NCBI GenBank assembly: GCA_017545165.1
Contig: JAFWQQ010000054.1
Span: forward strand, 10,279-74,278
Length of the DNA stretch: 64,000 nucleotides
Source of the DNA: Oscillospiraceae bacterium
GTDB taxonomy: Bacteria > Bacillota > Clostridia > Oscillospirales > Oscillospiraceae
Reading direction: 5' to 3'
In this document: positions 41,977 through 64,000 of the stretch, in pieces
How the letters are laid out: each line of letters opens with the position of its first letter
How positions within the stretch are numbered: position 1 is the first letter of the stretch
The notes under the pieces: model-generated
What the model saw: the letters and a program-made list of their open reading frames with translations, nothing else
Database searches by the model: none
What the model was told of the DNA's origin: nothing
Program-made: the position numbers and the translations under genes

Positions 41977-44217
41977 TCAGCCGTAATGTTCTGACATGTA
42001 AAGGCTCAGTTTGCTTTGAATCAGCCTCGCCGCTTCCTCGGCGCTCTCTTTCCCGGCAAGGAAAGCGTTGATTTCGGTTTTCAGCGTGTCGATCACCACA
42101 TCGTCCCGGATCACCAGTCGATCAGTCCCGTAGACCAGCTCGCGCATCACAGCAGCGTCTTTCTCGTTAAAGGATTCATAGTCGTTCACATTGCTCTGCT
42201 GCCGCTGCATACTATTCTCTACTGCTCGCTCAAAGCCAGCGCGTAACACGGGGATACCATCAGTCAGATACGGCTCGTCCTCTCCCTGCATAAAGGTCTT
42301 GACGAAGCGCCAGGCACCGTCTTTGTTTTCACTGGAGGCCAGAACGCCAAGGCTCGTATTGCAGCCAGACGTCCACATCATGCCGTCTCCCAGCATAAGT
42401 TGACCGCTATGTCCCATTCCTTCCGCAGGCAACAGCTTCATGAAGTAGGTTCCTGTACCCGTTGAGCCGGGGAAGCCGAGAACAGCCGCTTCATCCTTGA
42501 AGGTCATGCGTGGACGGTAGCCTGCCTCGGAAGCAAAGTCATAGGAGATCAGCCAGTCGCAGCCGGGACTAAAGAAGGATGCTCCTTCCGGTGAAATGAC
42601 CGGGAGGCGTTTCATCAGCTCCAGCCAGCCGACAAAGGCGGGGCTGTCGAAGCAGCAAGTACCGCTGCTCCGGTCCATAAACTCTGCCGTAGCCGCCCAG
42701 GAGAACAGTATTATCATTTGCTCCTGTGTCATGTAGGGCGCGCCATCTTCCTGCGTGAGCACTTCTATTGCTTTTTCGGGCGTCCATTCCTCCCGGCTGA
42801 TTCCAAGATGCTCTGCGCCAAGTATAGTCAGCAGAGTGAATTTGTCCGTGTACTCATACAGGCCGCCTCTCTCGGTCAGCGCGGAAAAGAGACTGGGAAT
42901 GAAATCTTCCCGGCTGATATCCGGATCAGCGTCGATATAGGGCAGAAGATCGACCAAAAGCTGCCGATCCACCGCGCCGGGCGGGAGCAAGCTGGTGTCC
43001 AGCACATCAATCTCGTTCTCTGTCGCAAGCTGGATCATCAGCTTGTTCCGCTCCGCTTCGTCATGCCACACCATAGGCTTGATGGCAATGCGGTATTCCG
43101 GGTCCGTCTGATTGAAACGCATGATCGCATCCAGCAGCACCTCCGGGCAGGTGTAGTCGGTTTCGCTGTACTCATAGCCCTGGGCCGTGGCATCGGCAAA
43201 GCAGCCCAGCGTCAGCGTCTTCTTCACCGGCACCATGCCGGGACTTACTTTTGTGAGCTTGTTGTTCGCCAAATAGAATAGGTCACCGTTAGAATTCTCC
43301 AGCCCGAGGTAGGCGCTGTAGCCCTGCAGACTCGCGTAATTAAGGGCGACATCCATCCAGTTGAAAATCGGGCTCATGCTTCCGGTGCCCGGGTCGTATT
43401 CCTGCAGCTTCCGCTCCTTTGTGACCAGGATGCGGCCCCGCTGACTGCTGTAAACCGGCTCCCACAGAAGGCCCTCCAAGGGCTTTCCGCATTGGAGCGT
43501 GTCCGGATCAAAAGGGCAATACCCGTCATAGGTGGATAAATAGAGCGCATCGCTGATCCAAATGCATTGTGTAAAACCCATCAACGGCAGATCGAGCTTA
43601 TCGAGTATCTGTGCGTCCCGGTTGATGAGACGCACGGTCTCGTCGTCGTTCAGGATCGCTCGCTCTTTGTCCAGAGCGACAAGCCCGGTCAGATAGGGGT
43701 CGCTGTCATTCCCATTTCTCCAGAAGTCGATGCATGTGCAGGTCTGTGCGCCGCTTTGCGTATCCAGCACGATCAGGAAATAATGCAGCTTGCGAGAGAA
43801 ATCCCGCCTGACCATTTCCTCATCGGAATAGCCCTCCATCAGTCGTACCCAGACGGCGCCATCTGCCACGGAGAATGCTTCGATCCGCGGGTACTTTGCA
43901 TCGCCTGTTTCCAGTTCCCAGCTTTGCCACTCGTCAGCAAGGGTATCATAGCGCAGCACAGCAAATCCGCCGTCTGGCGTCTCTGCATGAAGGTACAGAC
44001 TGTCACCTAAGCTTTGCAGTCCACCAAAGTCTTGATAGCCCTCCGGCATGGGCAACTCGGTAGTGATAAAGCCCTGTTCTGTCTCAGCAGAGATTTGCGG
44101 CTCACCGATCACAATAACCTCGGCATCTTCTCCCAATGTAAGCTTCCCACAGGCGCAGAGCGAGGCAAGCATAGCCAGCGTCAGCAGAAAACCCAATATT
44201 CTGTTTGTTTTACTCAT
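41977..44217 (-). CDS. large lipoprotein: N-terminal beta-rich domain of about 330 aa plus C-terminal extracellular solute-binding-protein-like domain (paralog 1)
   Basis: MSKTNRILGFLLTLAMLASLCACG lipobox. The C-terminal half has SBP-like features (...GFPGSTGTGTYF..., ...AEEAARLIQSKLSLYMSE). Paralogous to 56858-59032 and 62186-64000. Confidence 0.75.
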   Translation of the reverse strand: MSKTNRILGFLLTLAMLASLCACGKLTLGEDAEVIVIGEPQISAETEQGFITTELPMPEGYQDFGGLQSLGDSLYLHAETPDGGFAVLRYDTLADEWQSWELETGDAKYPRIEAFSVADGAVWVRLMEGYSDEEMVRRDFSRKLHYFLIVLDTQSGAQTCTCIDFWRNGNDSDPYLTGLVALDKERAILNDDETVRLINRDAQILDKLDLPLMGFTQCIWISDALYLSTYDGYCPFDPDTLQCGKPLEGLLWEPVYSSQRGRILVTKERKLQEYDPGTGSMSPIFNWMDVALNYASLQGYSAYLGLENSNGDLFYLANNKLTKVSPGMVPVKKTLTLGCFADATAQGYEYSETDYTCPEVLLDAIMRFNQTDPEYRIAIKPMVWHDEAERNKLMIQLATENEIDVLDTSLLPPGAVDRQLLVDLLPYIDADPDISREDFIPSLFSALTERGGLYEYTDKFTLLTILGAEHLGISREEWTPEKAIEVLTQEDGAPYMTQEQMIILFSWAATAEFMDRSSGTCCFDSPAFVGWLELMKRLPVISPEGASFFSPGCDWLISYDFASEAGYRPRMTFKDEAAVLGFPGSTGTGTYFMKLLPAEGMGHSGQLMLGDGMMWTSGCNTSLGVLASSENKDGAWRFVKTFMQGEDEPYLTDGIPVLRAGFERAVENSMQRQQSNVNDYESFNEKDAAVMRELVYGTDRLVIRDDVVIDTLKTEINAFLAGKESAEEAARLIQSKLSLYMSEHYG

Positions 44218-44224
44218 TCTTCTC

Positions 44225-45016
44225 CTATCCGATGTAGATATCACAAAAGTCGTATTTGCCGTCAAAATCCTTCTTGTGGATGGTTCTCCCGGTTGGCTCC
44301 ACTGTCAGTCCACGGGCGATCCCTTCGATGTTCTCCATACTGTCATAGCCCCGGACGCCGATGATCCAGCCTTCCTCCGGATGGAACAGGATCACAAAGT
44401 TCCCGGTGGGGAACTGCGTTTGCTCCCGGTCGATGGCGTGGGTGGCCGTGGCCTGGAACTTGTAGACCTCTACGTCACCCCAGGTCTCACGGGTGATCTC
44501 ACCGGGCTGGAAACCCAGGAGGATCATGGCACCGCCATCCACAAACTGAGGCGCGTACATGATATCTACGACGCAAGAGGGCATATAGACACCGAATTCC
44601 TCGTTGTAGATCTCCCGCCCCTCTACCAGCTTCGTCCTGCCGACGGCCCAGCTCGCAGGATACCAGTAGTCCTCGCTCGGCGACCATGTGACGCGAAAGC
44701 GTACCTCCGGGCATTCTTCCGGACCTTCAAACTCAAAGGCGTATTCTCCCTTCCACTCGACCTGCTGCTCGCCGATGGTGGCCGTATAGGTCTCCCTACT
44801 GCCATGGCGGCTCATTTGAAACCAACCCAGGGCATAAGCGGTCACGGTAAAGAGAGAGACGATGATCGCCGCAACAAGCAAGGTGCTCCACAGCTTGCGG
44901 TGAACGCGGAATGGAGGTGTCGCTTCTTCCGCGTACCCGAGAAAAGCCTCTGCCTTTTTTACGTTTTCCAAACGGATACCCTGCATGGCATCCAACAGCA
45001 GTTCCTCGTTCAGCAT
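44225..45016 (-). CDS. single-pass membrane protein, putative anti-sigma partner (pair 1), unique ectodomain
   Basis: The ATG overlaps the sigma gene stop. Short cytoplasmic N-terminus, TM LWSTLLVAAIIVSLFTVTAYAL, ectodomain of about 200 aa. Confidence 0.6.
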   Translation of the reverse strand: MLNEELLLDAMQGIRLENVKKAEAFLGYAEEATPPFRVHRKLWSTLLVAAIIVSLFTVTAYALGWFQMSRHGSRETYTATIGEQQVEWKGEYAFEFEGPEECPEVRFRVTWSPSEDYWYPASWAVGRTKLVEGREIYNEEFGVYMPSCVVDIMYAPQFVDGGAMILLGFQPGEITRETWGDVEVYKFQATATHAIDREQTQFPTGNFVILFHPEEGWIIGVRGYDSMENIEGIARGLTVEPTGRTIHKKDFDGKYDFCDIYIG

Positions 45017-45567
45017 AAGCCCTCCTCCTGTAGTCTGTCGCGCAGCTTTTTCCGCAGGCGAAACAGGGTGGTTTTCACCTTGCTTTGGGTGCAACCGCTT
45101 TTCTTAGCGATCTCCGCGACGGTTGCGAGAAACCAATAGCGAGAGATAAAGATGATCTGATCCTTCTCCGGCAGCTCATTGACAAAACGGTCGATGGCTT
45201 CTTCCAGTTCTCGGGCTTCTACTTCACGTTCCGGATCTGACTGGCCCATCACGCAATCACTCAGCTCGTCCAGCGCCAGAGGAACCTCACCGCCTCCACG
45301 CTTGAGACTATGTTTCGCGCGGTAGCGATCCAGAGCAAGATGCCGGGTGATCGTCCCCAAAAACCCGGAAAGGATTGCAGGGCGTTCGGTAGGCATCAGA
45401 TTCCATGCTCGAAACCAGGTGTCGTTCACACATTCCTCCGCATCTTCGTTGTCTGTACAGATATTCATGGCGATCCGGTGGCAGTATCTGCCGTACTTCC
45501 GGTCAGTCTCGGATATGGCCTGGTCCGAGCGCTGCCAGTACAGATCAATGATTGCAGTGTCTTCCAT
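45010..45567 (-). CDS. sigma-70 family (ECF-like) RNA polymerase sigma factor, pair 1
   Basis: MEDTAIIDLYWQRSDQAI...EDAEECVNDTWFRAWN (region 2) and ...ATVAEIAKKSGCTQSKVKTTLFRLRKKL (region 4 HTH). AAGGAGG RBS. Confidence 0.85.
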   Translation of the reverse strand: MEDTAIIDLYWQRSDQAISETDRKYGRYCHRIAMNICTDNEDAEECVNDTWFRAWNLMPTERPAILSGFLGTITRHLALDRYRAKHSLKRGGGEVPLALDELSDCVMGQSDPEREVEARELEEAIDRFVNELPEKDQIIFISRYWFLATVAEIAKKSGCTQSKVKTTLFRLRKKLRDRLQEEGLC

Positions 45568-45595
45568 GGGAAAACCTCCTTGAGAGCTCTCATCC

Positions 45596-45626
45596 CTATA
45601 GACGGAAAGCATTTCGACGGGTTACA
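45596..45626 (-). promoter_or_regulatory. ECF-type bipartite promoter motif TGTAACC-N15-CGTCTATAG upstream of sigma gene 1
   Basis: The same motif with the same spacing occurs at 59052-59082 upstream of lipoprotein paralog 2. Confidence 0.5.
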
Positions 45627-55454: not shown

Positions 55455-56786
55455 TCAAAAGGCCGGGGCGAGGATTTGGCTCGGCTCCCCGTCGATCAGG
55501 CAGTCAATCCGAAGAAGTGGATGATAATAGCCTTTCCCGTCAATGCTCCATGTGAGTTCAGCACTCCGACATTCGAGCTGACGGATCTGCGCAGCATATG
55601 TTCCATCCAGGATAGAGAAGCGACCTTGTCGCAGCGCTTTTTCCAGCCCTGCTGTATCCAAGGCAGCACAGTCCGAGCCACGCTGGAGAGCGTTGACCTT
55701 CATTGATATCTTAGTGATGCTGTCTGCACCGCTTGTTACCTGGATCATCCCATCATAGAGCATGCCGCTTGATGGGACGAAGTGCCAGACAAGACTGTTT
55801 TCTCCCACTTCACTTGGCTCCGGGAACGAATAACCCGCATGTTCCAGTACCTGCAAAGCCGTATCTGCTGCGGTCCCCTCTGTAGGCAGCCCGTTCGGAA
55901 TGTACAGATCAAACTGACCGGTGTAATAGTACCAAAGGTACTCGTTAGAGCCTTCAGCCCGGTAGACCGCAAGATCGTCATAGGCATCCGAAGAGTCCGC
56001 TTTCCTTGCCCGGCCGAGCGCTTCAAGCAGGCGATCGGCAGTCGCTTCTGCCTCGCTTCTCGGCGGGCTGAAAAGCTGATAGACGGTCACGCTCGCGGGC
56101 AGCTGCCCGTCCAGTGCCTCAAGCTTAACCTCCTGCGGCTTCCCGTGTGTATGGTCAGGGAAATCCTGCCGCACGAATCCATAGGGGCGCGCAGACAGCC
56201 ATAGCAGTCCGGCAGCAAGGACAGCTACAGGCAGTATCGCTGCGAAGGCTGAAGTCAGCACCGGCTTTCGGCTCTTGAGGTTTGTATAGCACTCTCCGAG
56301 GCATAATCCCCAGATCGCACCGAGGCTGTTTGCGAGCAGGTCGTCGATGTCCATCGCGCCAAGCCGTGCAACGTACTGTGTGCATTCGATCAGCGAAGGA
56401 AACAGAATCGCCAGCAAATAGAGCCGCTTTCCCTTCTTTATGCCCTGCGCGTGCCAAACGAGAAGCAATCCAAGCGGAACAAAGGCAAGAATATTGAGGG
56501 CTAGCTGGATTGCCGCATGCCTGTCAGCGCTGGTAAGGGCCTCATGGAGCGCTTCAAACGGATGTATATTACTTGCATGAATCAAAGGCGAGCGGTTGCC
56601 GAACACAACAAGTGCCAGAATGCAAAGATACCACAGTGTCAAAAACCACTTGATTCGAAAAGACTTATCCAGTTCTCGCTTTTTCCAAGGCCGCAGCACA
56701 AAAAGAACATAAAGCAGTCCGGACAGCAGCAGAGAAAGGAGGCCGTATTTCCCGCCGATCTGCAAATAGTGTTTCAAAGAAGCCAT
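55455..56786 (-). CDS. VanZ-like membrane protein fused to an extracytoplasmic domain of about 250 aa
   Basis: The N-terminal 190 aa have the VanZ pattern (NILAFVPLGLLL...DIDDLLANSLGAIWG). A further TM segment and an uncharacterised domain follow. GGGGTGAAGG RBS before 56786. Confidence 0.7.
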   Translation of the reverse strand: MASLKHYLQIGGKYGLLSLLLSGLLYVLFVLRPWKKRELDKSFRIKWFLTLWYLCILALVVFGNRSPLIHASNIHPFEALHEALTSADRHAAIQLALNILAFVPLGLLLVWHAQGIKKGKRLYLLAILFPSLIECTQYVARLGAMDIDDLLANSLGAIWGLCLGECYTNLKSRKPVLTSAFAAILPVAVLAAGLLWLSARPYGFVRQDFPDHTHGKPQEVKLEALDGQLPASVTVYQLFSPPRSEAEATADRLLEALGRARKADSSDAYDDLAVYRAEGSNEYLWYYYTGQFDLYIPNGLPTEGTAADTALQVLEHAGYSFPEPSEVGENSLVWHFVPSSGMLYDGMIQVTSGADSITKISMKVNALQRGSDCAALDTAGLEKALRQGRFSILDGTYAAQIRQLECRSAELTWSIDGKGYYHPLLRIDCLIDGEPSQILAPAF

Positions 56787-56857
56787 ACCTTCACCCCTTT
56801 TTCTGCTGTATTTTACCATATCTGGCACGAGACTGTCTCTTAAGCTTTCTTAACGGC

Positions 56858-59032
56858 TCAGCCCTGTTCGGCGACGTAGAGCCTTGCGCTGCTTTGGATA
56901 CGGTCGGCTGCCTCGTCAAGGCTGATCTGGCCGCCGAAGTAGGCCCGCGCGTTCGTTTTGATCATGTCAAGCAGCGTTTCGTCGCAGCGCACCAGCTTGT
57001 CCGTCGCATACACAAGCTCCCGCAGTCTTTGCGCGTCGTCGGCGTTGAAGTTATCAAAGCCCTGCACGATCTGATCCGAGATGCTTGCCTGCAAAGCGGC
57101 CTCAAAGCTGCTTTGCAGCACGGGAATTCCGTTCATGATATCACTCTCCGCGGCGTTTGTCAGCAGCAGACGGATGAGCTGCCACGCGCCGTTCGGGTGC
57201 TGAGAGGAAGCCATAATGCCGAGGCGCGTCGCCGCGCCTGCCGTTGTCCGAAATTGATCCGGGCCGGTTCCGAGCTGGATGAAATAACAGCCGCTGCCGC
57301 TCGTGCCGGGGAAGCCGCAATAAACGTAATCGTCCTGCAGCGCCATGCGGATCGTCGCCCCGGTGTTCGCGGCAAGATCCCAGCTCATATAGAGAAGCTG
57401 CGGATCTTCAGTATATTCGGCACTGTAAGGCGCGTCCTTCACGAGCTGCAACCATGCCTTGAATTCCGGGCTGTCGAAGGAACTGCTGCCGTTTTCCCAA
57501 TCCACGAACTCCGCCGTGGCCATCTTGGCCAGCATGTCCAGAAGAACCTCCCGGTCCTGCCATGAGGGGAAAAGCTGCCAGTTGTCCGGCATTTCCCGCA
57601 TCTGCTCTGTCGCTTCCTCCACCGTCCAGGCGTCGCGTCCTGGGAAGCGATCCGGGTGCGCGGCAAAGCCGATGAGAGTGACCCGCGCAGTCAGTTCATA
57701 GAGCCCGCCGTTTTTCAGCATGGCGTTCAGCAGGGGCTGAATGAAATCCTCCCGGCTCAGGTCAGGGTCTGCATCAAGATACGGAAGCATATCCAGGAGC
57801 AGGCCACTGTCCAGACTGAGCTCCGGCAGTCCGGCGGTGTCCAGAATGTCGATGCCGCTGCCTGTGGCAAGCTCAATGAGGCGCTTGTCTCGCTGTCCTT
57901 CAGCGTCGAAATCGAGCTTCCGGATCTCCACCTTGTAGTCGGGATTCGTATTGTTGAAGCGGATCACGGCGTCCAGCAGGTCACGGGAAATGCCGGTTTC
58001 CGGATCTATCAAAAAGCCAGCCTGCGCACCGCCAAAGCTGCCCAGAACGAGCGTCTGCCGCTCCTTGATCATTCCTTGCGTAACTTTGATCACGGATTTT
58101 CCATCCATGACAGGATAGAAAAAGTCCCCGGCGCTGTTTTCAAACAGCGCATACCCACCCTTGCTGGCATAGCTCAATGCCACGTCGATCCAGCGGAAAA
58201 GCCGTTCCTTTACCGCACCGCTCTCCGGGTCGATCTCACAGACCGTACCATCCACGCTGTTGAGCCAGCGGCCGTTTTCACTGAAAAAGCTGCCTGCAAA
58301 CTCCAGCTCCCGCGCGGGACTGAAGCTCAGGGTTTCAGGGGAAAAGCTGCAGGTGCCCACGACATAGTTCTGCCCTTCCATGTGCCCCGTGTGATACAGG
58401 CGCTCCGTTCCGGAGCGTAGGCTGCTTTGAAAGACGGTGCCCTGCAGATCCAACTTCTGCTGCAGATTCATCTCTCGGTCTACGACATAGCCCTGTTCAC
58501 CGGCGCAGAGGATCGCCCGGTTTTCATCTAAAGCAAGGATTCCCGAAAAATACAGACCGGAAGCCTCTGTTGACTCGCCACCCGAAAATGGGATCACCTG
58601 TACGCTGCCGGTGCTGCCCTGCGTTCTGTCGCAGAAGTACATCCAATATTGAGACTCCATCGACTGCTCGGTTCGGCTCTCCAACAGCGCCCAGACCGCA
58701 TTGCCCGAGACGGACAGACCACGCAGCGCAACGGAACCGGGGATCGCGTTGCTGTCATAGGTAAGCAGCGTCCAATCGTCGTTTACGGTATCATAGCAGC
58801 CGATCAGGGCTTCGCCCGTATAGCCGGAGAGGAACAGCGTGTCTCCTTGCGCATCCCATTCGCTGTTTACCCTGCCGAGCTCTTTGGGGACGGAGATTTC
58901 TGAGGGGATGTAGCCGGGAACGGCGTTCCCCTCGACGACCAGTTCGGCAGGCTGTTCCGTCTGCTTGCCGCAGGCGGAAAGGGAGAGTATCATCAGGTAT
59001 GCAAGAAGCATGCAAATCAGTTTTTTGCTCAT
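56858..59032 (-). CDS. large lipoprotein, beta-rich N-domain plus SBP-like C-domain (paralog 2)
   Basis: MSKKLICMLLAYLMILSLSACG lipobox. Shares DPDYKVEIRK..IELATGSGIDILDT..DMLPYLDADPDLSREDFIQPL..GGLYELT with paralogs 1 and 3. Confidence 0.75.
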   Translation of the reverse strand: MSKKLICMLLAYLMILSLSACGKQTEQPAELVVEGNAVPGYIPSEISVPKELGRVNSEWDAQGDTLFLSGYTGEALIGCYDTVNDDWTLLTYDSNAIPGSVALRGLSVSGNAVWALLESRTEQSMESQYWMYFCDRTQGSTGSVQVIPFSGGESTEASGLYFSGILALDENRAILCAGEQGYVVDREMNLQQKLDLQGTVFQSSLRSGTERLYHTGHMEGQNYVVGTCSFSPETLSFSPARELEFAGSFFSENGRWLNSVDGTVCEIDPESGAVKERLFRWIDVALSYASKGGYALFENSAGDFFYPVMDGKSVIKVTQGMIKERQTLVLGSFGGAQAGFLIDPETGISRDLLDAVIRFNNTNPDYKVEIRKLDFDAEGQRDKRLIELATGSGIDILDTAGLPELSLDSGLLLDMLPYLDADPDLSREDFIQPLLNAMLKNGGLYELTARVTLIGFAAHPDRFPGRDAWTVEEATEQMREMPDNWQLFPSWQDREVLLDMLAKMATAEFVDWENGSSSFDSPEFKAWLQLVKDAPYSAEYTEDPQLLYMSWDLAANTGATIRMALQDDYVYCGFPGTSGSGCYFIQLGTGPDQFRTTAGAATRLGIMASSQHPNGAWQLIRLLLTNAAESDIMNGIPVLQSSFEAALQASISDQIVQGFDNFNADDAQRLRELVYATDKLVRCDETLLDMIKTNARAYFGGQISLDEAADRIQSSARLYVAEQG

Positions 59033-59051
59033 AGCAGAAACTCCTTCACTT

Positions 59052-59082
59052 CTATAAACGCTTTTTTCGTGCTTTGGTTACA
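59052..59082 (-). promoter_or_regulatory. ECF-type bipartite motif TGTAACC-N15-CGTTTATAG upstream of lipoprotein paralog 2
   Basis: Same half-sites and the same 15-nt spacing as 45596-45626. Lies 20 nt upstream of the ATG at 59032. Confidence 0.5.
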
Positions 59083-59096
59083 AATCATCTGTCGCT

Positions 59097-60344
59097 TCAG
59101 TCATGCTCGGCCACATACAGCCGGATCTTCGACTCCATCTGCATGACCGTCTCATCCAGATTGCGCTGTCCTGAAAAGTAGGCTTCGGCCAGCGGCAATA
59201 ATACGGTCAGAAGTCCTTCGTGTTTGAAGCTAGAAACGTCGATCCCATAGACGATTTCCCGCAGGCGCTGTGCGTCCTGCTCGGTGATCGGATTGTCCGT
59301 GTCTTCCAGTCCCTTTTGCAGATGTGCCTCGAAGCGATCCTTCAGCACGGGGAAATCGTTGAAGCCATCCGGCGCGTCCCGGCCAAAGATGTCGCCGTAA
59401 TAGGCGAAGAGAGCGTAGCGCATGAAGCGCCAGGCTTCCTCCTTGTGCGTGCTGTCAGCCAGCATACCGGTGTTAAAGAAACCCGCTCCCTGCATGACAT
59501 AAAAGCCGCTGCTTTTCTGCGCGGGCCAGCCGACCAGCTCGGCGTCATCGGAGATATAGGTGCGAATGGCCGGAAGCCGTCCGCAGGCGCCGATCTCTTC
59601 GTGCCGGACACCCAGCCCCGGCGCGTCCTTGCAAAACTGAAGCCATCCTCTCAGAACCGCTGTATCCACTTCATTTCCGTTCACCACGTCGTTTTCGATC
59701 ACCGGGAAAGCCTCACGGAAGTTCTGCATAGCACTGGGAACCGGAAAAATGTCGTCCACATCAGGGGCCGGGCCAAGAGCTCTTTCATAATCCTCAAAGC
59801 TCAAGCCCGACTGTGCCGCGCCATCATAATCCAGTACCGCACTGAGGAAGAAAGATGGCGTGAGCGTATAGAGCTTGCCGTCCTCCATCATGGCCTCCAG
59901 TACGGCGGGGATGAAGTCATCTGCGGAAAGCTCCGGGTCGCGTTCCATAAAAGGTAACAAATCTTCCAGATACAGCGACTGCTCTCCGCCCAGCGCGAGA
60001 GAAACCGTGTCGATCATATCCGGTCCCTGCCCGGCCATAATCTCCACGCGCAGCTTGTCCCAGGACCCGAATTCGTATACGCGGGTTTCCACCCGGCAGT
60101 CAGGGCATTGCTCGTTGAACTGCCGGATCATGGTGTACAGCGGCCCGTCCATATAAGCGGTCGCCAGCGTGATGACGGTTTTTTCTTCCTCCGGCAAAGG
60201 CGCAGGGCGCTCGGTTTCTTCCGCCGCTGCCGGAGCGGTTTCACCAGAGTTTGCCGCGACTGGCTTCTCGCTCCGCTTGCCGCAGGCGGCCAATGAGAGT
60301 ATCATGGAAAGCGAAAGAATCAGACATAGGATCTTTCTGGTCAT
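59097..60344 (-). CDS. SBP-like lipoprotein (415 aa, lacks the N-terminal beta-rich domain)
   Basis: MTRKILCLILSLSMILSLAACG lipobox. More distant homology to the C-domains of the large lipoproteins (...DLLPFMERDPELSADDFIPAVLEAM..GKLYTLT). Confidence 0.75.
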   Translation of the reverse strand: MTRKILCLILSLSMILSLAACGKRSEKPVAANSGETAPAAAEETERPAPLPEEEKTVITLATAYMDGPLYTMIRQFNEQCPDCRVETRVYEFGSWDKLRVEIMAGQGPDMIDTVSLALGGEQSLYLEDLLPFMERDPELSADDFIPAVLEAMMEDGKLYTLTPSFFLSAVLDYDGAAQSGLSFEDYERALGPAPDVDDIFPVPSAMQNFREAFPVIENDVVNGNEVDTAVLRGWLQFCKDAPGLGVRHEEIGACGRLPAIRTYISDDAELVGWPAQKSSGFYVMQGAGFFNTGMLADSTHKEEAWRFMRYALFAYYGDIFGRDAPDGFNDFPVLKDRFEAHLQKGLEDTDNPITEQDAQRLREIVYGIDVSSFKHEGLLTVLLPLAEAYFSGQRNLDETVMQMESKIRLYVAEHD

Positions 60345-60366
60345 GTTTACGACCTCCTTTCACGCA

Positions 60367-60450
60367 TAAGAACGCGGCATCAGAATGCTTTGTCGCACGA
60401 AAAATTTTTATTTTTCCTGTGCGACAAACTGCCGGGTGCGCGCGTTCTTA
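60367..60450. promoter_or_regulatory. mirror-symmetric divergent promoter region: GTGCGACAAA-N14-CGTTCTTA in both orientations
   Basis: Plus strand 60419-60450, minus strand 60398-60367. The two GTGCGACAAA boxes also form an 8-10 bp inverted repeat around an AT-rich 20-mer. Confidence 0.5.
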
Positions 60451-60486
60451 ATAGTGAGAGATCATATAGAAAGAGGGAATCTCAAG

Positions 60487-61044
60487 TTGAAAGAAGCAAG
60501 GCTACTGCGGCGCTTACAAAATGGAGAGAGCGCAGCCTTGGGCGAGATCATGAAGTTGTATACTCCATATGTCGCTGCCATCGTGAGGAATATCATCGAC
60601 CCGCCCCTGCAGGAAGAGGATGTAGAGGAGGTCGTAGCCGATGTGTATTTATCTCTTTGGAAGAATGCCGCTGATATAGAAGACGGCAAGCTCCGCCCCT
60701 GGCTCGCCGCCGTGACACGAAACCGCGCCAAAGATAAGCTCCGCGCGCTGCATCTGAATCTTCCGTTGGAGGATGATGCCCTGGAGCTGATCGCGGATGG
60801 ACCCGAAACCGAGGCCGTACGGCAGGAGGCCATTCAGGCGACAAAGGAGGCGGTAGACTCTCTCGGAGAGCCGGATCGCTCCATTTTCCTGCGATACTAT
60901 TACCTGTATCAAAAGACCGATGAGATCGCCGCAGCCATGGGCTTAAAGCCGTCCATCGTCCGGAACCGGCTCTCCCGGGGTCGGGAAAAGCTGAAAACAC
61001 GTTTGGTGGAAAGGGGGCTTTGCTATGAAGCTGAGTATTGCTGA
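60487..61044 (+). CDS. ECF sigma-70 family sigma factor, pair 5 (TTG start)
   Basis: (M)KEARLLRRLQNGESAALGEIMKLYTPYV...EDVEEVVADVYLSLW (region 2) and ...TDEIAAAMGLKPSIVRNRLSRGREKL (region 4). AGAGGGA RBS 7 nt before the TTG. Confidence 0.8.
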   Translation: MKEARLLRRLQNGESAALGEIMKLYTPYVAAIVRNIIDPPLQEEDVEEVVADVYLSLWKNAADIEDGKLRPWLAAVTRNRAKDKLRALHLNLPLEDDALELIADGPETEAVRQEAIQATKEAVDSLGEPDRSIFLRYYYLYQKTDEIAAAMGLKPSIVRNRLSRGREKLKTRLVERGLCYEAEYC

Positions 61045-62134
61045 TCTGGTGGAAAACTGCTCTGCGGAGGAACTCATGATCGGAAAAGAAGAAAGAGAAC
61101 TGACCGAGCGCGTCAAAGCGCGGGTGCTGGCCGAAATCGAAGCAGAAAGCAAAGCAGCCAAGCCGAAGAAAGAAATCGTGCATATCCGTTCCAGACGGGT
61201 CATACCCTTCGCCTTTGTCGCTGCGCTGCTTCTTTCTCTTGGCATCGTTGCCTATGCGATCAGCAGCATCCACGCGGCGCGGCAGCAGGAGCTGCGCGCA
61301 GAGAGGAATCTGAACGAGCACCAAACGGAAAGCTATGTGGAATATGAGACCCCCGATGAATCTACGCCTGGCGTCGTGCTGCTCTCGACCATCAACGATG
61401 GAGAGTTTCAGGAGGTCTATGTCAATGTGTCCCCGGTAACGGAGGAAGAGATTGCGGGTTACCCTGAGCAGCCAATCTCTTTCCGCTGGCAGATCGTGGG
61501 CTCAGATCTGAAAGGCTTTGCCGATCCCTGGATCAGACCGGGCAGCTCAGCACACACACCGGAGGCGCTCCGGGCCCTCGTTCAGCGGGATGCCTATGAT
61601 GCCGAGACACAGACGCTGACGCTTTGCTGCCATGTTCTCTCAGAATCGCTGGCTGCCTTTCTGGAAGACTGCGGCTCGGACACAGCCGAGCTTGAGTTGT
61701 TTCTGGCTGAGGACTATATCGCCACAAGGAGCTTTGGCAGCGTTTCGCTGACGCCGACAGACGAGGATCGCCGCAGCTTCGAATTCGGAAGCGTAAGCTG
61801 GAAAGACGATGAAAGCGGCAAGGAGGTCGAGCTGATCGGTCTGGAGCTCACACCGGTCAGCAGTGTCTGGCATCTTCGCTATCCGGCGGCTGAAGCTGTT
61901 TATACGGGCAGCGATCTTGAACTGCAGAAAGCCTGGCTGCGGGTGGAAGACCGCATCTGTATGAACGCGCGGATCATCTTTTCCGACGGCAGCAGCATGG
62001 TTACCAATGGTGCGCTGAGCGCCCGCTATGAAGATGGTGTGGTCAGCCTGTATACCGGATGGCCGCGCGCGATTGACATTACCGATGTACAGCAGATCGT
62101 CCTTGGTGATCTGGTTTTGTGGGAAAACAAATGA
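61025..62134 (+). CDS. single-pass membrane protein, putative anti-sigma partner (pair 5), shared ectodomain family
   Basis: The start overlaps the sigma gene end. TM VIPFAFVAALLLSLGIVAYA. The ectodomain carries LLSTINDGEFQ...NVSPVTEE and YDAETQTLTL, like pairs 2 and 4. Confidence 0.65.
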   Translation: MKLSIADLVENCSAEELMIGKEERELTERVKARVLAEIEAESKAAKPKKEIVHIRSRRVIPFAFVAALLLSLGIVAYAISSIHAARQQELRAERNLNEHQTESYVEYETPDESTPGVVLLSTINDGEFQEVYVNVSPVTEEEIAGYPEQPISFRWQIVGSDLKGFADPWIRPGSSAHTPEALRALVQRDAYDAETQTLTLCCHVLSESLAAFLEDCGSDTAELELFLAEDYIATRSFGSVSLTPTDEDRRSFEFGSVSWKDDESGKEVELIGLELTPVSSVWHLRYPAAEAVYTGSDLELQKAWLRVEDRICMNARIIFSDGSSMVTNGALSARYEDGVVSLYTGWPRAIDITDVQQIVLGDLVLWENK

Positions 62135-62147
62135 TGTAACGATGCAA

Positions 62148-62177
62148 CAAGCGGGAGCGATTCGTCGCTCCCGCTTG
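62148..62177. terminator. 13-bp hairpin between convergent genes
   Basis: CAAGCGGGAGCGA-ttcg-TCGCTCCCGCTTG. No clear T-run. Confidence 0.45.
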
Positions 62178-62185
62178 GACATTGG

Positions 62186-64000
62186 TCAACTATATTGTTC
62201 TGCCAAATACAGACTCAAACGACTTTGAATCTGTTTTGCGGCTTCCTCGGCAGACTTCTGTCCATCAAGAAAAGCGTTGATTTCGGACTGCATCACCAGC
62301 AGAATCTGCTTGTCTGTATGGATTAGCTTTGTGGCACCGTAGACCTGTTCACGCAGGCGTTGAGCGTCGTCGGCATTGAACATGGCAAGTCCCTGGAATT
62401 CTCCATTATTGGAAAGCGATGAGTCGATAACCCGTTCAAACCGTTCCCGGGACGCAGGAATGCCAAAGGAGATCGATTGATCTTCTTCGCTTTCGCTCAT
62501 CATTAGTGTTCGGACAAAGCGCCATGCGCCCTCTTGATGCTTGCTGGAAGCCATAATACCGATTCGGGTATTCTGTCCGACGGTGCTCCGGCTCTCTCCC
62601 GCACTGCTTCCTAACTTCAGCAAAAAGCTCCCCGTTCCTTCCGTGCTCGGAAAACCAGCGACAGCATAATCGCTTTGAAATGGGTAGCGGGAGCTGAAAC
62701 CGGCATCCGAGGCAAAATCATAGCAAAAAGCCATGAGTTTTTCTTCATCTTGCGGACTTTTATCATCCAGAAGTTCTTTGAGCAGACGAAGCCAATCCTG
62801 AAATGCACGGCTGTCAAAAGAGCAGCATGCGTTTTCCCAATCAATAAACTCTGCCGTTGCTGCCCAGCTTACAACAGTCACAATCATTTCTCTGTTCATG
62901 CTTTGCCAAAGCGGAGCATATTCAGGGTGCTGAGCAATTAATTCTTCGATTTGATTGACGGTCCAGCTTTCTCGTCCGGGGAACATCTCAGGACGTGCCA
63001 GCAGCGTCACCAGCGTAAATTTGTCGGTGTATTCATAGAGTCCGCCATGCTTCATCATGGCCTGAAGCAGCGAGGGAATAAAGTCCTCACGGCTGATGGT
63101 TTCGTCAGCATCGATCATGGGTAGCATGTCTGCAAGGAGACCAGCGTCCAGCGCGCCGTCAGGCAAAAAACTTGTGTCCAAAATGTCAATATCCTCGGAG
63201 GTGGCAAGCTCAATCAGCAGACGATCGCGCTCACTTTCGTTGTTGTACAGTAGGGGCTGGATTTCAATGCGGTATTCTGGGTCGCTGTTGTTAAAACGAA
63301 TGATCGAATCCCGAAGCTTTAAGCTCATGGAATAGGGAGGCGCACCGGCTTGTTGAAAATACTCGTAACTCTCCGCTCCGGTATCTCCAAAGCAGGCAAG
63401 AGTCAAAACTTTTTTGACCGGAACCATAGCGGGTGAAACTTTGACAAGACCATTCGATGTGATGTAAAAGAGTTCGCCCTTTGAGTTCTCAAGCCCAAAG
63501 GGACTGCCCATACTGCTGTAGCTCAGAGCAACATCCATCCAATCAAAACGCTCCGTCTCATTGCCTGTTGCCGGATTTACTTCAATGAGCCTGTTTTGCT
63601 TGTCATAAAGGAAATGCCCGTCGTTGCTGGAATAAACATGGCTTGCGTTCAACTCAAAGGCTTGTCCGAGCTGAAATGTTTCCAAGTCTAGCGGTGCAGC
63701 GCCTTCCTCGGTCATTAAGTATAATTGATCGTTTACCCGGAATCGAGGAAGACCGCCCAGGTCGGAAACATTTGGCTGATCTAAAACACTTAGCTTAGGG
63801 TCAATGAGATAGCAGGTTTCAGGTGTAGTCAAGAGAGCTTTCTCTCTATCAAGCCCGAGAAGGCTCATGCTACTTGTCTCGTTGTTGCTGCTGCTGCCTT
63901 CAAAGGGAATGCGTGTGCAACGCATTTCTCCGTCCTCTCGGCTACCCCACAGAATATAATGTCCAAGGTTTTCCAGAAACTTTCCGCTGCTTGCATCTTC
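62186..64000 (-). CDS. large lipoprotein family, paralog 3 (N-terminus beyond the right edge)
   Basis: The frame stays open to position 64000 (...EDASSGKFLENLGHYILWGSREDGEMRCTR...). Shares DPEYRIEIQP..IELATSEDIDILDT..DMLPMIDADETISREDFIPSL..GGLYEYTDKFTL with paralog 1. Confidence 0.75.
   Translation of the reverse strand, partial: EDASSGKFLENLGHYILWGSREDGEMRCTRIPFEGSSSNNETSSMSLLGLDREKALLTTPETCYLIDPKLSVLDQPNVSDLGGLPRFRVNDQLYLMTEEGAAPLDLETFQLGQAFELNASHVYSSNDGHFLYDKQNRLIEVNPATGNETERFDWMDVALSYSSMGSPFGLENSKGELFYITSNGLVKVSPAMVPVKKVLTLACFGDTGAESYEYFQQAGAPPYSMSLKLRDSIIRFNNSDPEYRIEIQPLLYNNESERDRLLIELATSEDIDILDTSFLPDGALDAGLLADMLPMIDADETISREDFIPSLLQAMMKHGGLYEYTDKFTLVTLLARPEMFPGRESWTVNQIEELIAQHPEYAPLWQSMNREMIVTVVSWAATAEFIDWENACCSFDSRAFQDWLRLLKELLDDKSPQDEEKLMAFCYDFASDAGFSSRYPFQSDYAVAGFPSTEGTGSFLLKLGSSAGESRSTVGQNTRIGIMASSKHQEGAWRFVRTLMMSESEEDQSISFGIPASRERFERVIDSSLSNNGEFQGLAMFNADDAQRLREQVYGATKLIHTDKQILLVMQSEINAFLDGQKSAEEAAKQIQSRLSLYLAEQYS

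Follow-up and report, generated by a model that had tools for sequence, protein, structure and literature searches.

Gene content of the locus

The window, by which we mean the whole 64-kb stretch of DNA that was analysed (G000:C106:10279-74278), belongs to an Oscillospiraceae-type MAG of 2.4 Mb that is ~75% complete and has a G+C content of 60.5%. Within positions 55455-64000, genes were found for a VanZ-like protein, two solute-binding-protein (SBP)-like lipoproteins, an ECF sigma factor (sigma 5), a putative anti-sigma factor and a third lipoprotein, and no ABC permease or ATPase gene was matched in the same interval. The genes around the region under study, together with a promoter lying between the two SBP-like lipoprotein genes, are as follows.

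56858..59032, minus strand: 724-aa lipoprotein with an N-terminal all-beta domain and a C-terminal oligosaccharide-type SBP fold (AlphaFold model and Foldseek search)
59052..59082, minus strand: ECF-type promoter TGTAAC-N16-CGTTTATAG before the 724-aa lipoprotein gene, of the sigma-1 type and not of the sigma-5 type
59097..60344, minus strand: 415-aa lipoprotein with lipobox LAAC and a solute-binding-protein domain (Pfam SBP_bac_8, 27.9 bits, cutoff 27), its gene lying 3′ of the leftward promoter described below
60487..61044, plus strand: ECF sigma factor gene (sigma 5), 185 aa, TTG start, identified by Pfam and NCBIfam
61025..62134, plus strand: putative single-pass membrane anti-sigma factor, 369 aa, its gene overlapping the sigma gene by 20 nt

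Sigma 5 was classified as an ECF (group 4) sigma factor by its matches to Pfam Sigma70_r2 (35.5 bits) and Sigma70_r4_2 (37.5 bits), both over cutoff, and to NCBIfam TIGR02937 (sigma70-ECF; 71.3 bits, cutoff 42.9). The assignment holds at the superfamily level, with all NCBIfam subfamily and equivalog models, SigW, SigM and SigX included, scoring far under their cutoffs. The genome encodes at least 13 ECF paralogues, and sigma 5 is only ~30% identical to the rest of them. Homologues of sigma 5 align from residues 1-3, and the two translation starts proposed by an earlier sequence-only reading of this DNA, the ATG of the 415-aa lipoprotein gene at 60344 (minus strand) and the TTG of the sigma gene at 60487 (plus strand), were both retained; a 142-bp intergenic region separates them. 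For the product of 61025-62134 we infer an anti-sigma function: the protein is matched weakly by NF052375 "anti-sigma factor", at 25 bits where the cutoff is 100, and by no Pfam model, and its gene stays beside the sigma gene in orthologous loci at 96-43% identity.

Two exact copies of a bipartite motif are mirrored in the intergenic region

Direct reading and a pattern search of the intergenic region located GTGCGACAAA-N14-CGTTCTTA with 0 mismatches at 60419-60450 on the plus strand and at 60398-60367 on the minus strand, so that the motif, its positions and its equal 14-nt spacing are exactly those of the sequence-only reading. The two decamers make up a perfect 10-nt inverted repeat, TTTGTCGCAC-N20-GTGCGACAAA, with a 20-nt AT-rich stretch in between, which bears out the long inverted repeat that had been described across an AT-rich 20-mer. 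Mirror similarity reaches outward to 60357-60460 and includes a third shared block, GTGA(A/G)AG; the two 14-nt spacers are identical at 3 of 14 positions only. The chance expectation for the motif is 0.04 copies, two or more copies occurred in none of 100 shuffles, and no third copy was found in the 64-kb window at up to 3 mismatches. A genome-wide search, which had been suggested as a check, returned no site besides the local two in the MAG (2.4 Mb, ~75% complete) when spacings of 13-15 and up to 2 mismatches were allowed, and only scattered weak matches beyond the local pair at up to 4 mismatches. The pair is thus unique in the MAG at the former stringency.

Each copy can be read as an ECF promoter of the form TGCGAC-N17-CGTTCTTA followed by GTGA(A/G)AG, in which the -35 hexamer ends with AC, the spacer is 17 nt long and the -10 element begins with CGT. 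The rightward copy ends 36 nt before the TTG start of the sigma gene and has the bipartite -35/-10 arrangement with a spacer inside the 16-18 bp range. Among the 13 ECF paralogues of the genome, sigma 5 alone carries the TGCGAC-N17-CGTTCTTA signature upstream of its gene. The parts of the two putative promoters, from left to right, are listed below.

60357..60363, minus strand: GTGAAAG block and predicted leftward start region, overlapping the Shine-Dalgarno sequence AAGGAGG (60359-60353)
60367..60374, minus strand: -10 element CGTTCTTA of the leftward promoter, 17 nt past the -35 element; invariant in orthologues though the adjoining 14-nt spacer is almost wholly different in the 97% orthologue
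60392..60397, minus strand: -35 element TGCGAC of the leftward promoter (415-aa lipoprotein gene); invariant in orthologues
60399..60418, no strand: AT-rich 20-mer between the decamers, a candidate shared UP-element-like tract
60420..60425, plus strand: -35 element TGCGAC of the rightward promoter (sigma 5/anti-sigma operon); GCGAC invariant in the 97%, 96% and 83% orthologues and aligning with the clade's (T/C)GnnAC boxes
60443..60450, plus strand: -10 element CGTTCTTA of the rightward promoter, 17 nt past the -35 element; invariant in orthologues, with N17 kept in 8 of 8 lineages examined
60454..60460, plus strand: GTGAGAG block and predicted transcription start region, from the mirror alignment and from G(T/C)GAAAG-like blocks after the -10 element in homologues

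ECF geometry would place the rightward transcription start at about 60453-60457. AT-rich tracts also lie upstream of the -35 element in homologues and in two other loci with a long gap between the promoters (L055 and L059).

Other kinds of element were sought in the same region. A consensus scan of 60345-60486 gave no sigma-70 promoter site, and manual placements had 18-21-nt spacers and poor -10 hexamers. An RNA-element reading of the leaders was rejected, the folding z-scores being just -0.9 and -1.9 and no Rfam family being assigned; the sole Rfam match, RAGATH-21 at 60437-60518 (plus strand), reached 22.7 bits where the gathering score is 70.3 (E 0.2) and was taken as chance.

The proposed promoter boxes are conserved in orthologous loci while the spacers drift

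The region was compared with a series of orthologous loci from rumen and gut Oscillospiraceae/Ruminococcaceae MAGs, in which the identity of the sigma factor is 97, 96, 83, 73, 60, 51 and 51%. The 97%, 96% and 83% loci show no change in either -35 block or either -10 block. The left 14-nt spacer (60375-60388) is almost wholly different in the 97% orthologue (L033), with its length unchanged, and this keeping of the boxes while the spacer was replaced points to selection on the boxes and not to the leftover of a recent inverted duplication. Absence of the motif from orthologous loci had been named beforehand as an outcome that would speak against a promoter; the motif is present in orthologues, with its boxes conserved and its spacers drifting.

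The number of copies differs with the gene lying upstream. In the 73% and 60% orthologues, the gene upstream runs in the same direction and a terminator-like hairpin follows it; each of these loci holds exactly one forward copy, TGTGAC-N17-CGTTCTTA and TGAAAC-N17-CGTTATGA, respectively. One of the 51% orthologues lies within an operon and has no copy of the motif. By locus number, one forward and no reverse copy was found in L056 and L057, where the upstream gene is co-directional, and no copy in L039. A divergent lipoprotein gene goes together with a mirrored pair in the remaining 51% orthologue (L038) and at a second paralogue in L036.

Searched across 185,579 species genomes, the exact motif was found only in two close relatives and on one Carnobacteriaceae MAG contig (L043:781-812), and the latter match is taken as chance because homologues of the local proteins are absent from that contig. 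Inside three orthologue genomes, the matches at up to 1 mismatch are the two local sites only, and those at 2 mismatches stay at the level of a reversed-pattern control. Because only the local sites are found in these genomes, the regulon appears, as far as sequence searches go, to be strictly local, though the genome under study, its MAG being ~75% complete, may hold further members.

Two further details were noted in the closest orthologues. The flanking genes of L033 are 93-97% identical to those of the window and the other intergenic sequence is nearly identical, the replacement being sharply confined to the left spacer. The likeness of the lipoprotein gene in the 96% orthologue (L034:1-55, CAMHMZ010000078.1) ends right after the left GTGAAAG, and the contig stops ~50 nt on; this loss of likeness could be due to an assembly break or to a different downstream gene.

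Of 200 genomes sampled from the same family, 46 hold more distant homologues of sigma 5 (40-50% identity). A single forward motif of like architecture lies directly upstream of them, TGAAAC, TGTAAC or TGCAAC followed after 16-17 nt by CGTAT or GTGATAT, often with an AT-rich tract 5′ of the -35 element and with a G(T/C)GAAAG block 3′ of the -10 element.

A feature of another kind was seen in the autoregulatory promoters of the sigma family, most of which have a short perfect palindrome right after the -10 element (GAGAGCTCTC, GAGAGCGCTC, GAAAGCAGCTTTC, GAACCGGTTC or GAACGGCCGTTC; for example at window 45575-45590 on the minus strand, on contigs C27, C6 and C15 of the same genome, and in L009-L015, L019 and L024). 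It is absent from the lipoprotein-side promoters, and it could be a 5′-terminal mRNA hairpin or a protein binding site.

The mirrored pair accompanies a divergent lipoprotein gene

The relation between gene orientation and the mirrored pair was assessed in a larger sample of 80 loci obtained by an alignment-based scan. Inspection with flexible spacing indicated a mirrored pair in 10 of 10 loci with a divergent lipoprotein gene (~8 lineages), the -35/-10 spacer always being 17 nt. A score for inverted bipartite repeats, by which upstream regions were tested for a back-to-back repeat with no sequence presupposed, was higher than in all 40 shuffles for 5 of 9 divergent-lipoprotein loci vs 1 of 69 others. 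The generic clade pattern [TC]GnnAC-N17-[CT]GTT, which has a shuffle rate of ~1%, occurred on the forward strand of 9/9 and the reverse strand of 6/9 divergent loci, and on the forward strand of 3/70 and the reverse strand of 0/70 of all other loci (Fisher p 3e-7, the related loci being non-independent). The three divergent loci that fail the strict pattern on the reverse strand (L058, L059 and L084) have degenerate left copies. What is shown directly is the motif, together with its uniqueness and conservation and with its coupling to gene orientation.

The box variants of the two copies also co-vary. The boxes matched at 13.1 of 17 positions within loci vs 11.3 between loci, and 179 of 40,320 permutations reached the observed sum, for sites that were chosen partly by regex and partly by eye and for related loci that are not statistically independent. 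The spacers lack such co-variation (4.4 matches within loci vs 5.4 between). Across eight lineages of related loci, the inverted -35 hexamers stand 0, 4, 4, 5, 6, 20, 22 and 22 nt apart.

By this distance the mirrored pairs fall into a short class with the -35 hexamers 0-6 nt apart (L058, L062, L069, L070, L081 and L036:1360-1508) and a long class with 20-22 nt of AT-rich filler (the window, L055 and L059). Each spacer of the short class begins with a T-rich stretch that reads as an A-tract upstream of the opposite -35 element and may serve as a shared UP-like element.

The proposed lipoprotein target, its paralogues and their array

The AlphaFold2 model of the 724-aa lipoprotein (pLDDT 81.7, pTM 0.80) has an all-beta domain at about residues 37-332. 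Foldseek matched the model best to Clostridium thermocellum CbpC (7x0o; E 1.9e-16) and then to MalE and GltA, down to ~1e-11, and the SBP fold also had a match at the sequence level. The 415-aa protein is ~33% identical to the SBP half of this paralogue, and the VanZ-like gene lies beyond the 724-aa gene on the left. With no importer genes nearby, a target with an SBP fold may not be a transporter component.

The divergent gene in the 83% (L035) and 51% (L038) orthologues is the orthologue of the 724-aa gene (72% and 37% identity, respectively) and not of the 415-aa gene. As the mirrored promoter elsewhere faces the 724-aa orthologue, the 415-aa gene would seem to be an SBP-only paralogue that has come to occupy the sigma-5 promoter in this lineage, and it looks like a later insertion that rewired the array. 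The 724-aa gene of the window is preceded by the ECF-type promoter at 59052-59082, which matches the autoregulatory promoter of sigma 1, TGTAAC-N16-CGTCTATAG, at 45626-45596 (minus strand).

The lipoprotein family has nine paralogues in this genome. Four sigma-1-type modules (window 41977-45612; G000:C106:72467-76167 and 76922-80709; G000:C27:44228-47890) have a big SBP-like lipoprotein gene that is co-directional with and downstream of the sigma and anti-sigma genes, apparently in one operon. The lipoprotein gene of the sigma-5 clade is always divergent, and the same three components thus come in two gene orders.

Two probable back-to-back promoters and the alternatives to them

The arrangement is most likely that of two back-to-back ECF promoters, and we consider it highly probable that sigma 5 would read both of them, one serving its own operon and the other the divergent lipoprotein gene. 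Position and co-variation point to the dependence of both promoters on sigma 5. That a single sigma factor drives its own operon and the divergent lipoprotein gene had been proposed in the sequence-only reading, and the ECF geometry, the conservation of the boxes, the co-variation and the occurrence of the mirror only with a divergent lipoprotein gene favour this proposal. RNA polymerase with sigma 5 would recognise both TGCGAC-N17-CGTTCTTA promoters, the rightward one providing autoregulation of the sigma/anti-sigma operon and the leftward one driving the gene of the 415-aa SBP-type lipoprotein. Release of sigma 5 by the putative membrane anti-sigma factor would then induce both units together, and the outcome would be positive feedback plus one local target. 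The inverted-repeat look of the region is explained by two asymmetric promoter copies that oppose each other around a shared AT-rich, possibly UP-like spacer.

The perfect 10-nt inverted repeat stands centrally between two divergent genes, as would be expected if TTTGTCGCAC-N20-GTGCGACAAA were the operator of a dimeric transcription factor controlling both units, the alternative that the sequence-only reading had offered as a repressor site. An operator would have a fixed half-site spacing, but the gap between the inverted -35 hexamers varies over 0-22 nt across loci while the -35/-10 spacing is always 17, and this variable gap argues against a dimeric-repressor operator. Orthologues without the divergent gene keep one non-palindromic copy, the reverse copy occurring in none of the 70 non-divergent loci, and CGTTCTTA, the second box, is mirrored as well and keeps a constant distance, for which an operator has no need. 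No classical repressor gene flanks the region either, and the operator is highly improbable. The degenerate left copies in the distant loci L058, L059 and L084 would suit a different view, in which the sigma-proximal promoter alone works and an inverted duplication has left behind a leftward copy that is now decaying. In this lineage, however, the boxes do not differ between left and right, while the spacer between them was almost fully replaced in the closest orthologue, which indicates selection; the left copy also lies at a sensible distance from the Shine-Dalgarno sequence and ATG of the lipoprotein gene, for which no other promoter was detected, and a relic is very unlikely.

Both promoters could also be real and be read by another ECF paralogue. 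The genome holds at least 13 ECF paralogues with related promoters, and the sigma-1-type promoter before the neighbouring 724-aa gene indicates that cross-wiring occurs in this array. Against such cross-regulation, TGCGAC-N17-CGTTCTTA is missing upstream of every other paralogue's gene, and, from one genome to the next, the motif follows the sigma-5 orthologues, altering with their divergence; we hold it to be unlikely, and sigma 5 remains the preferred reader of the two promoters.

Discussion

Promoters of Bacillus subtilis sigma W, X and M have TGAAAC or TGTAAC at -35, a spacer of 16-17 nt and CGTA or CGAC at -10. The AAC at -35 and the CGT at -10 of this Firmicute ECF consensus recur in homologues of sigma 5, which have TGAAAC-N16/17-CGTAT; sigma 5 itself differs from it in the -35 box, which is GCGAC and not GAAAC.

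ECF sigma factors usually autoregulate, and this is the standard route to their promoters (Casas-Pastor et al. 2021, PMC7826278); a standard place to look for ECF promoters is the DNA upstream of divergent genes, and the scoring of such promoters uses spacers of 16-18 bp (Todor et al. 2020, PMC7776599). The elements described here are like those mined in both studies (PMC7776599, PMC7826278), with a two-block -35/-10 structure and a 16-18 bp spacer upstream of an ECF gene. A close parallel for the proposed circuit is BcrS/AbcS of Brucella melitensis (ECF16). As reported (PMC8315932), its promoters PbcrS and PbcrXQP are near-identical, (T/C)GTAAC-N17-CGAA, and serve the sigma factor's own operon and an "adjacent" target operon; the transcription start sites were experimentally mapped, and the targets are a methionine sulfoxide reductase system. 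The present system is like BcrS/AbcS in having an ECF sigma factor with a co-encoded membrane anti-sigma factor (putative here), in serving its own operon plus one target, and in its 17-nt spacer and similar -35 element. It is unlike the proteobacterial BcrS in its CGTT at -10 and its SBP-type lipoprotein target, and in being known, in an uncultured rumen Bacillota, from sequence alone. An autoregulated sigma operon with a divergent target on the same kind of promoter is ordinary wiring, already known for ECF sigma factors. As the logic is that of validated ECF circuits such as BcrS/AbcS and divergent upstream promoters are routine, the circuit is therefore of a known kind. What is gained is a clean and testable promoter definition for an uncultured rumen bacterium, with (T/C)GnnAC at -35, a 17-nt spacer and (C/T)GTT(C/T/A)T at -10, and the lesson that the palindromic look of such regions is not to be taken for an operator.

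In Gram-negative bacteria, FecA-FecR-FecI signalling and the SusC-like/anti-sigma/ECF signalling of Bacteroides involve outer-membrane TonB-dependent transducers. The resemblance of the present locus to these systems is one of analogy only, and it is unlike them in that its third partner is an SBP-fold lipoprotein and its host a Bacillota (Oscillospiraceae-type) MAG. As a tentative and rather speculative extension, the ECF sigma factor, the single-pass anti-sigma factor and an importer-less lipoprotein with a beta domain and an oligosaccharide-type SBP fold, serving the anti-sigma factor as its extracellular ligand receptor, might form an undescribed three-component surface-signalling module of rumen Oscillospiraceae/Ruminococcaceae. 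The lipoprotein family is tied to two ECF clades that are ~30% identical to each other, through two genetic solutions, which lends support to such a module. No description of an ECF/anti-sigma/SBP-lipoprotein module was found in a full-text literature search or in the main text of the ECF re-classification paper, and the main texts of PMC7776599 and PMC7826278 hold no mention of a solute-binding-protein context for ECF sigma factors. If the three-component module is real, it would be a counterpart, in Gram-positive bacteria, of trans-envelope signalling by FecA-FecR-FecI or of the SusC type. The repeated tie of importer-less SBP-fold lipoproteins to ECF sigma/anti-sigma pairs in fibre-degrading gut Clostridia hints at an undescribed route of carbohydrate sensing.
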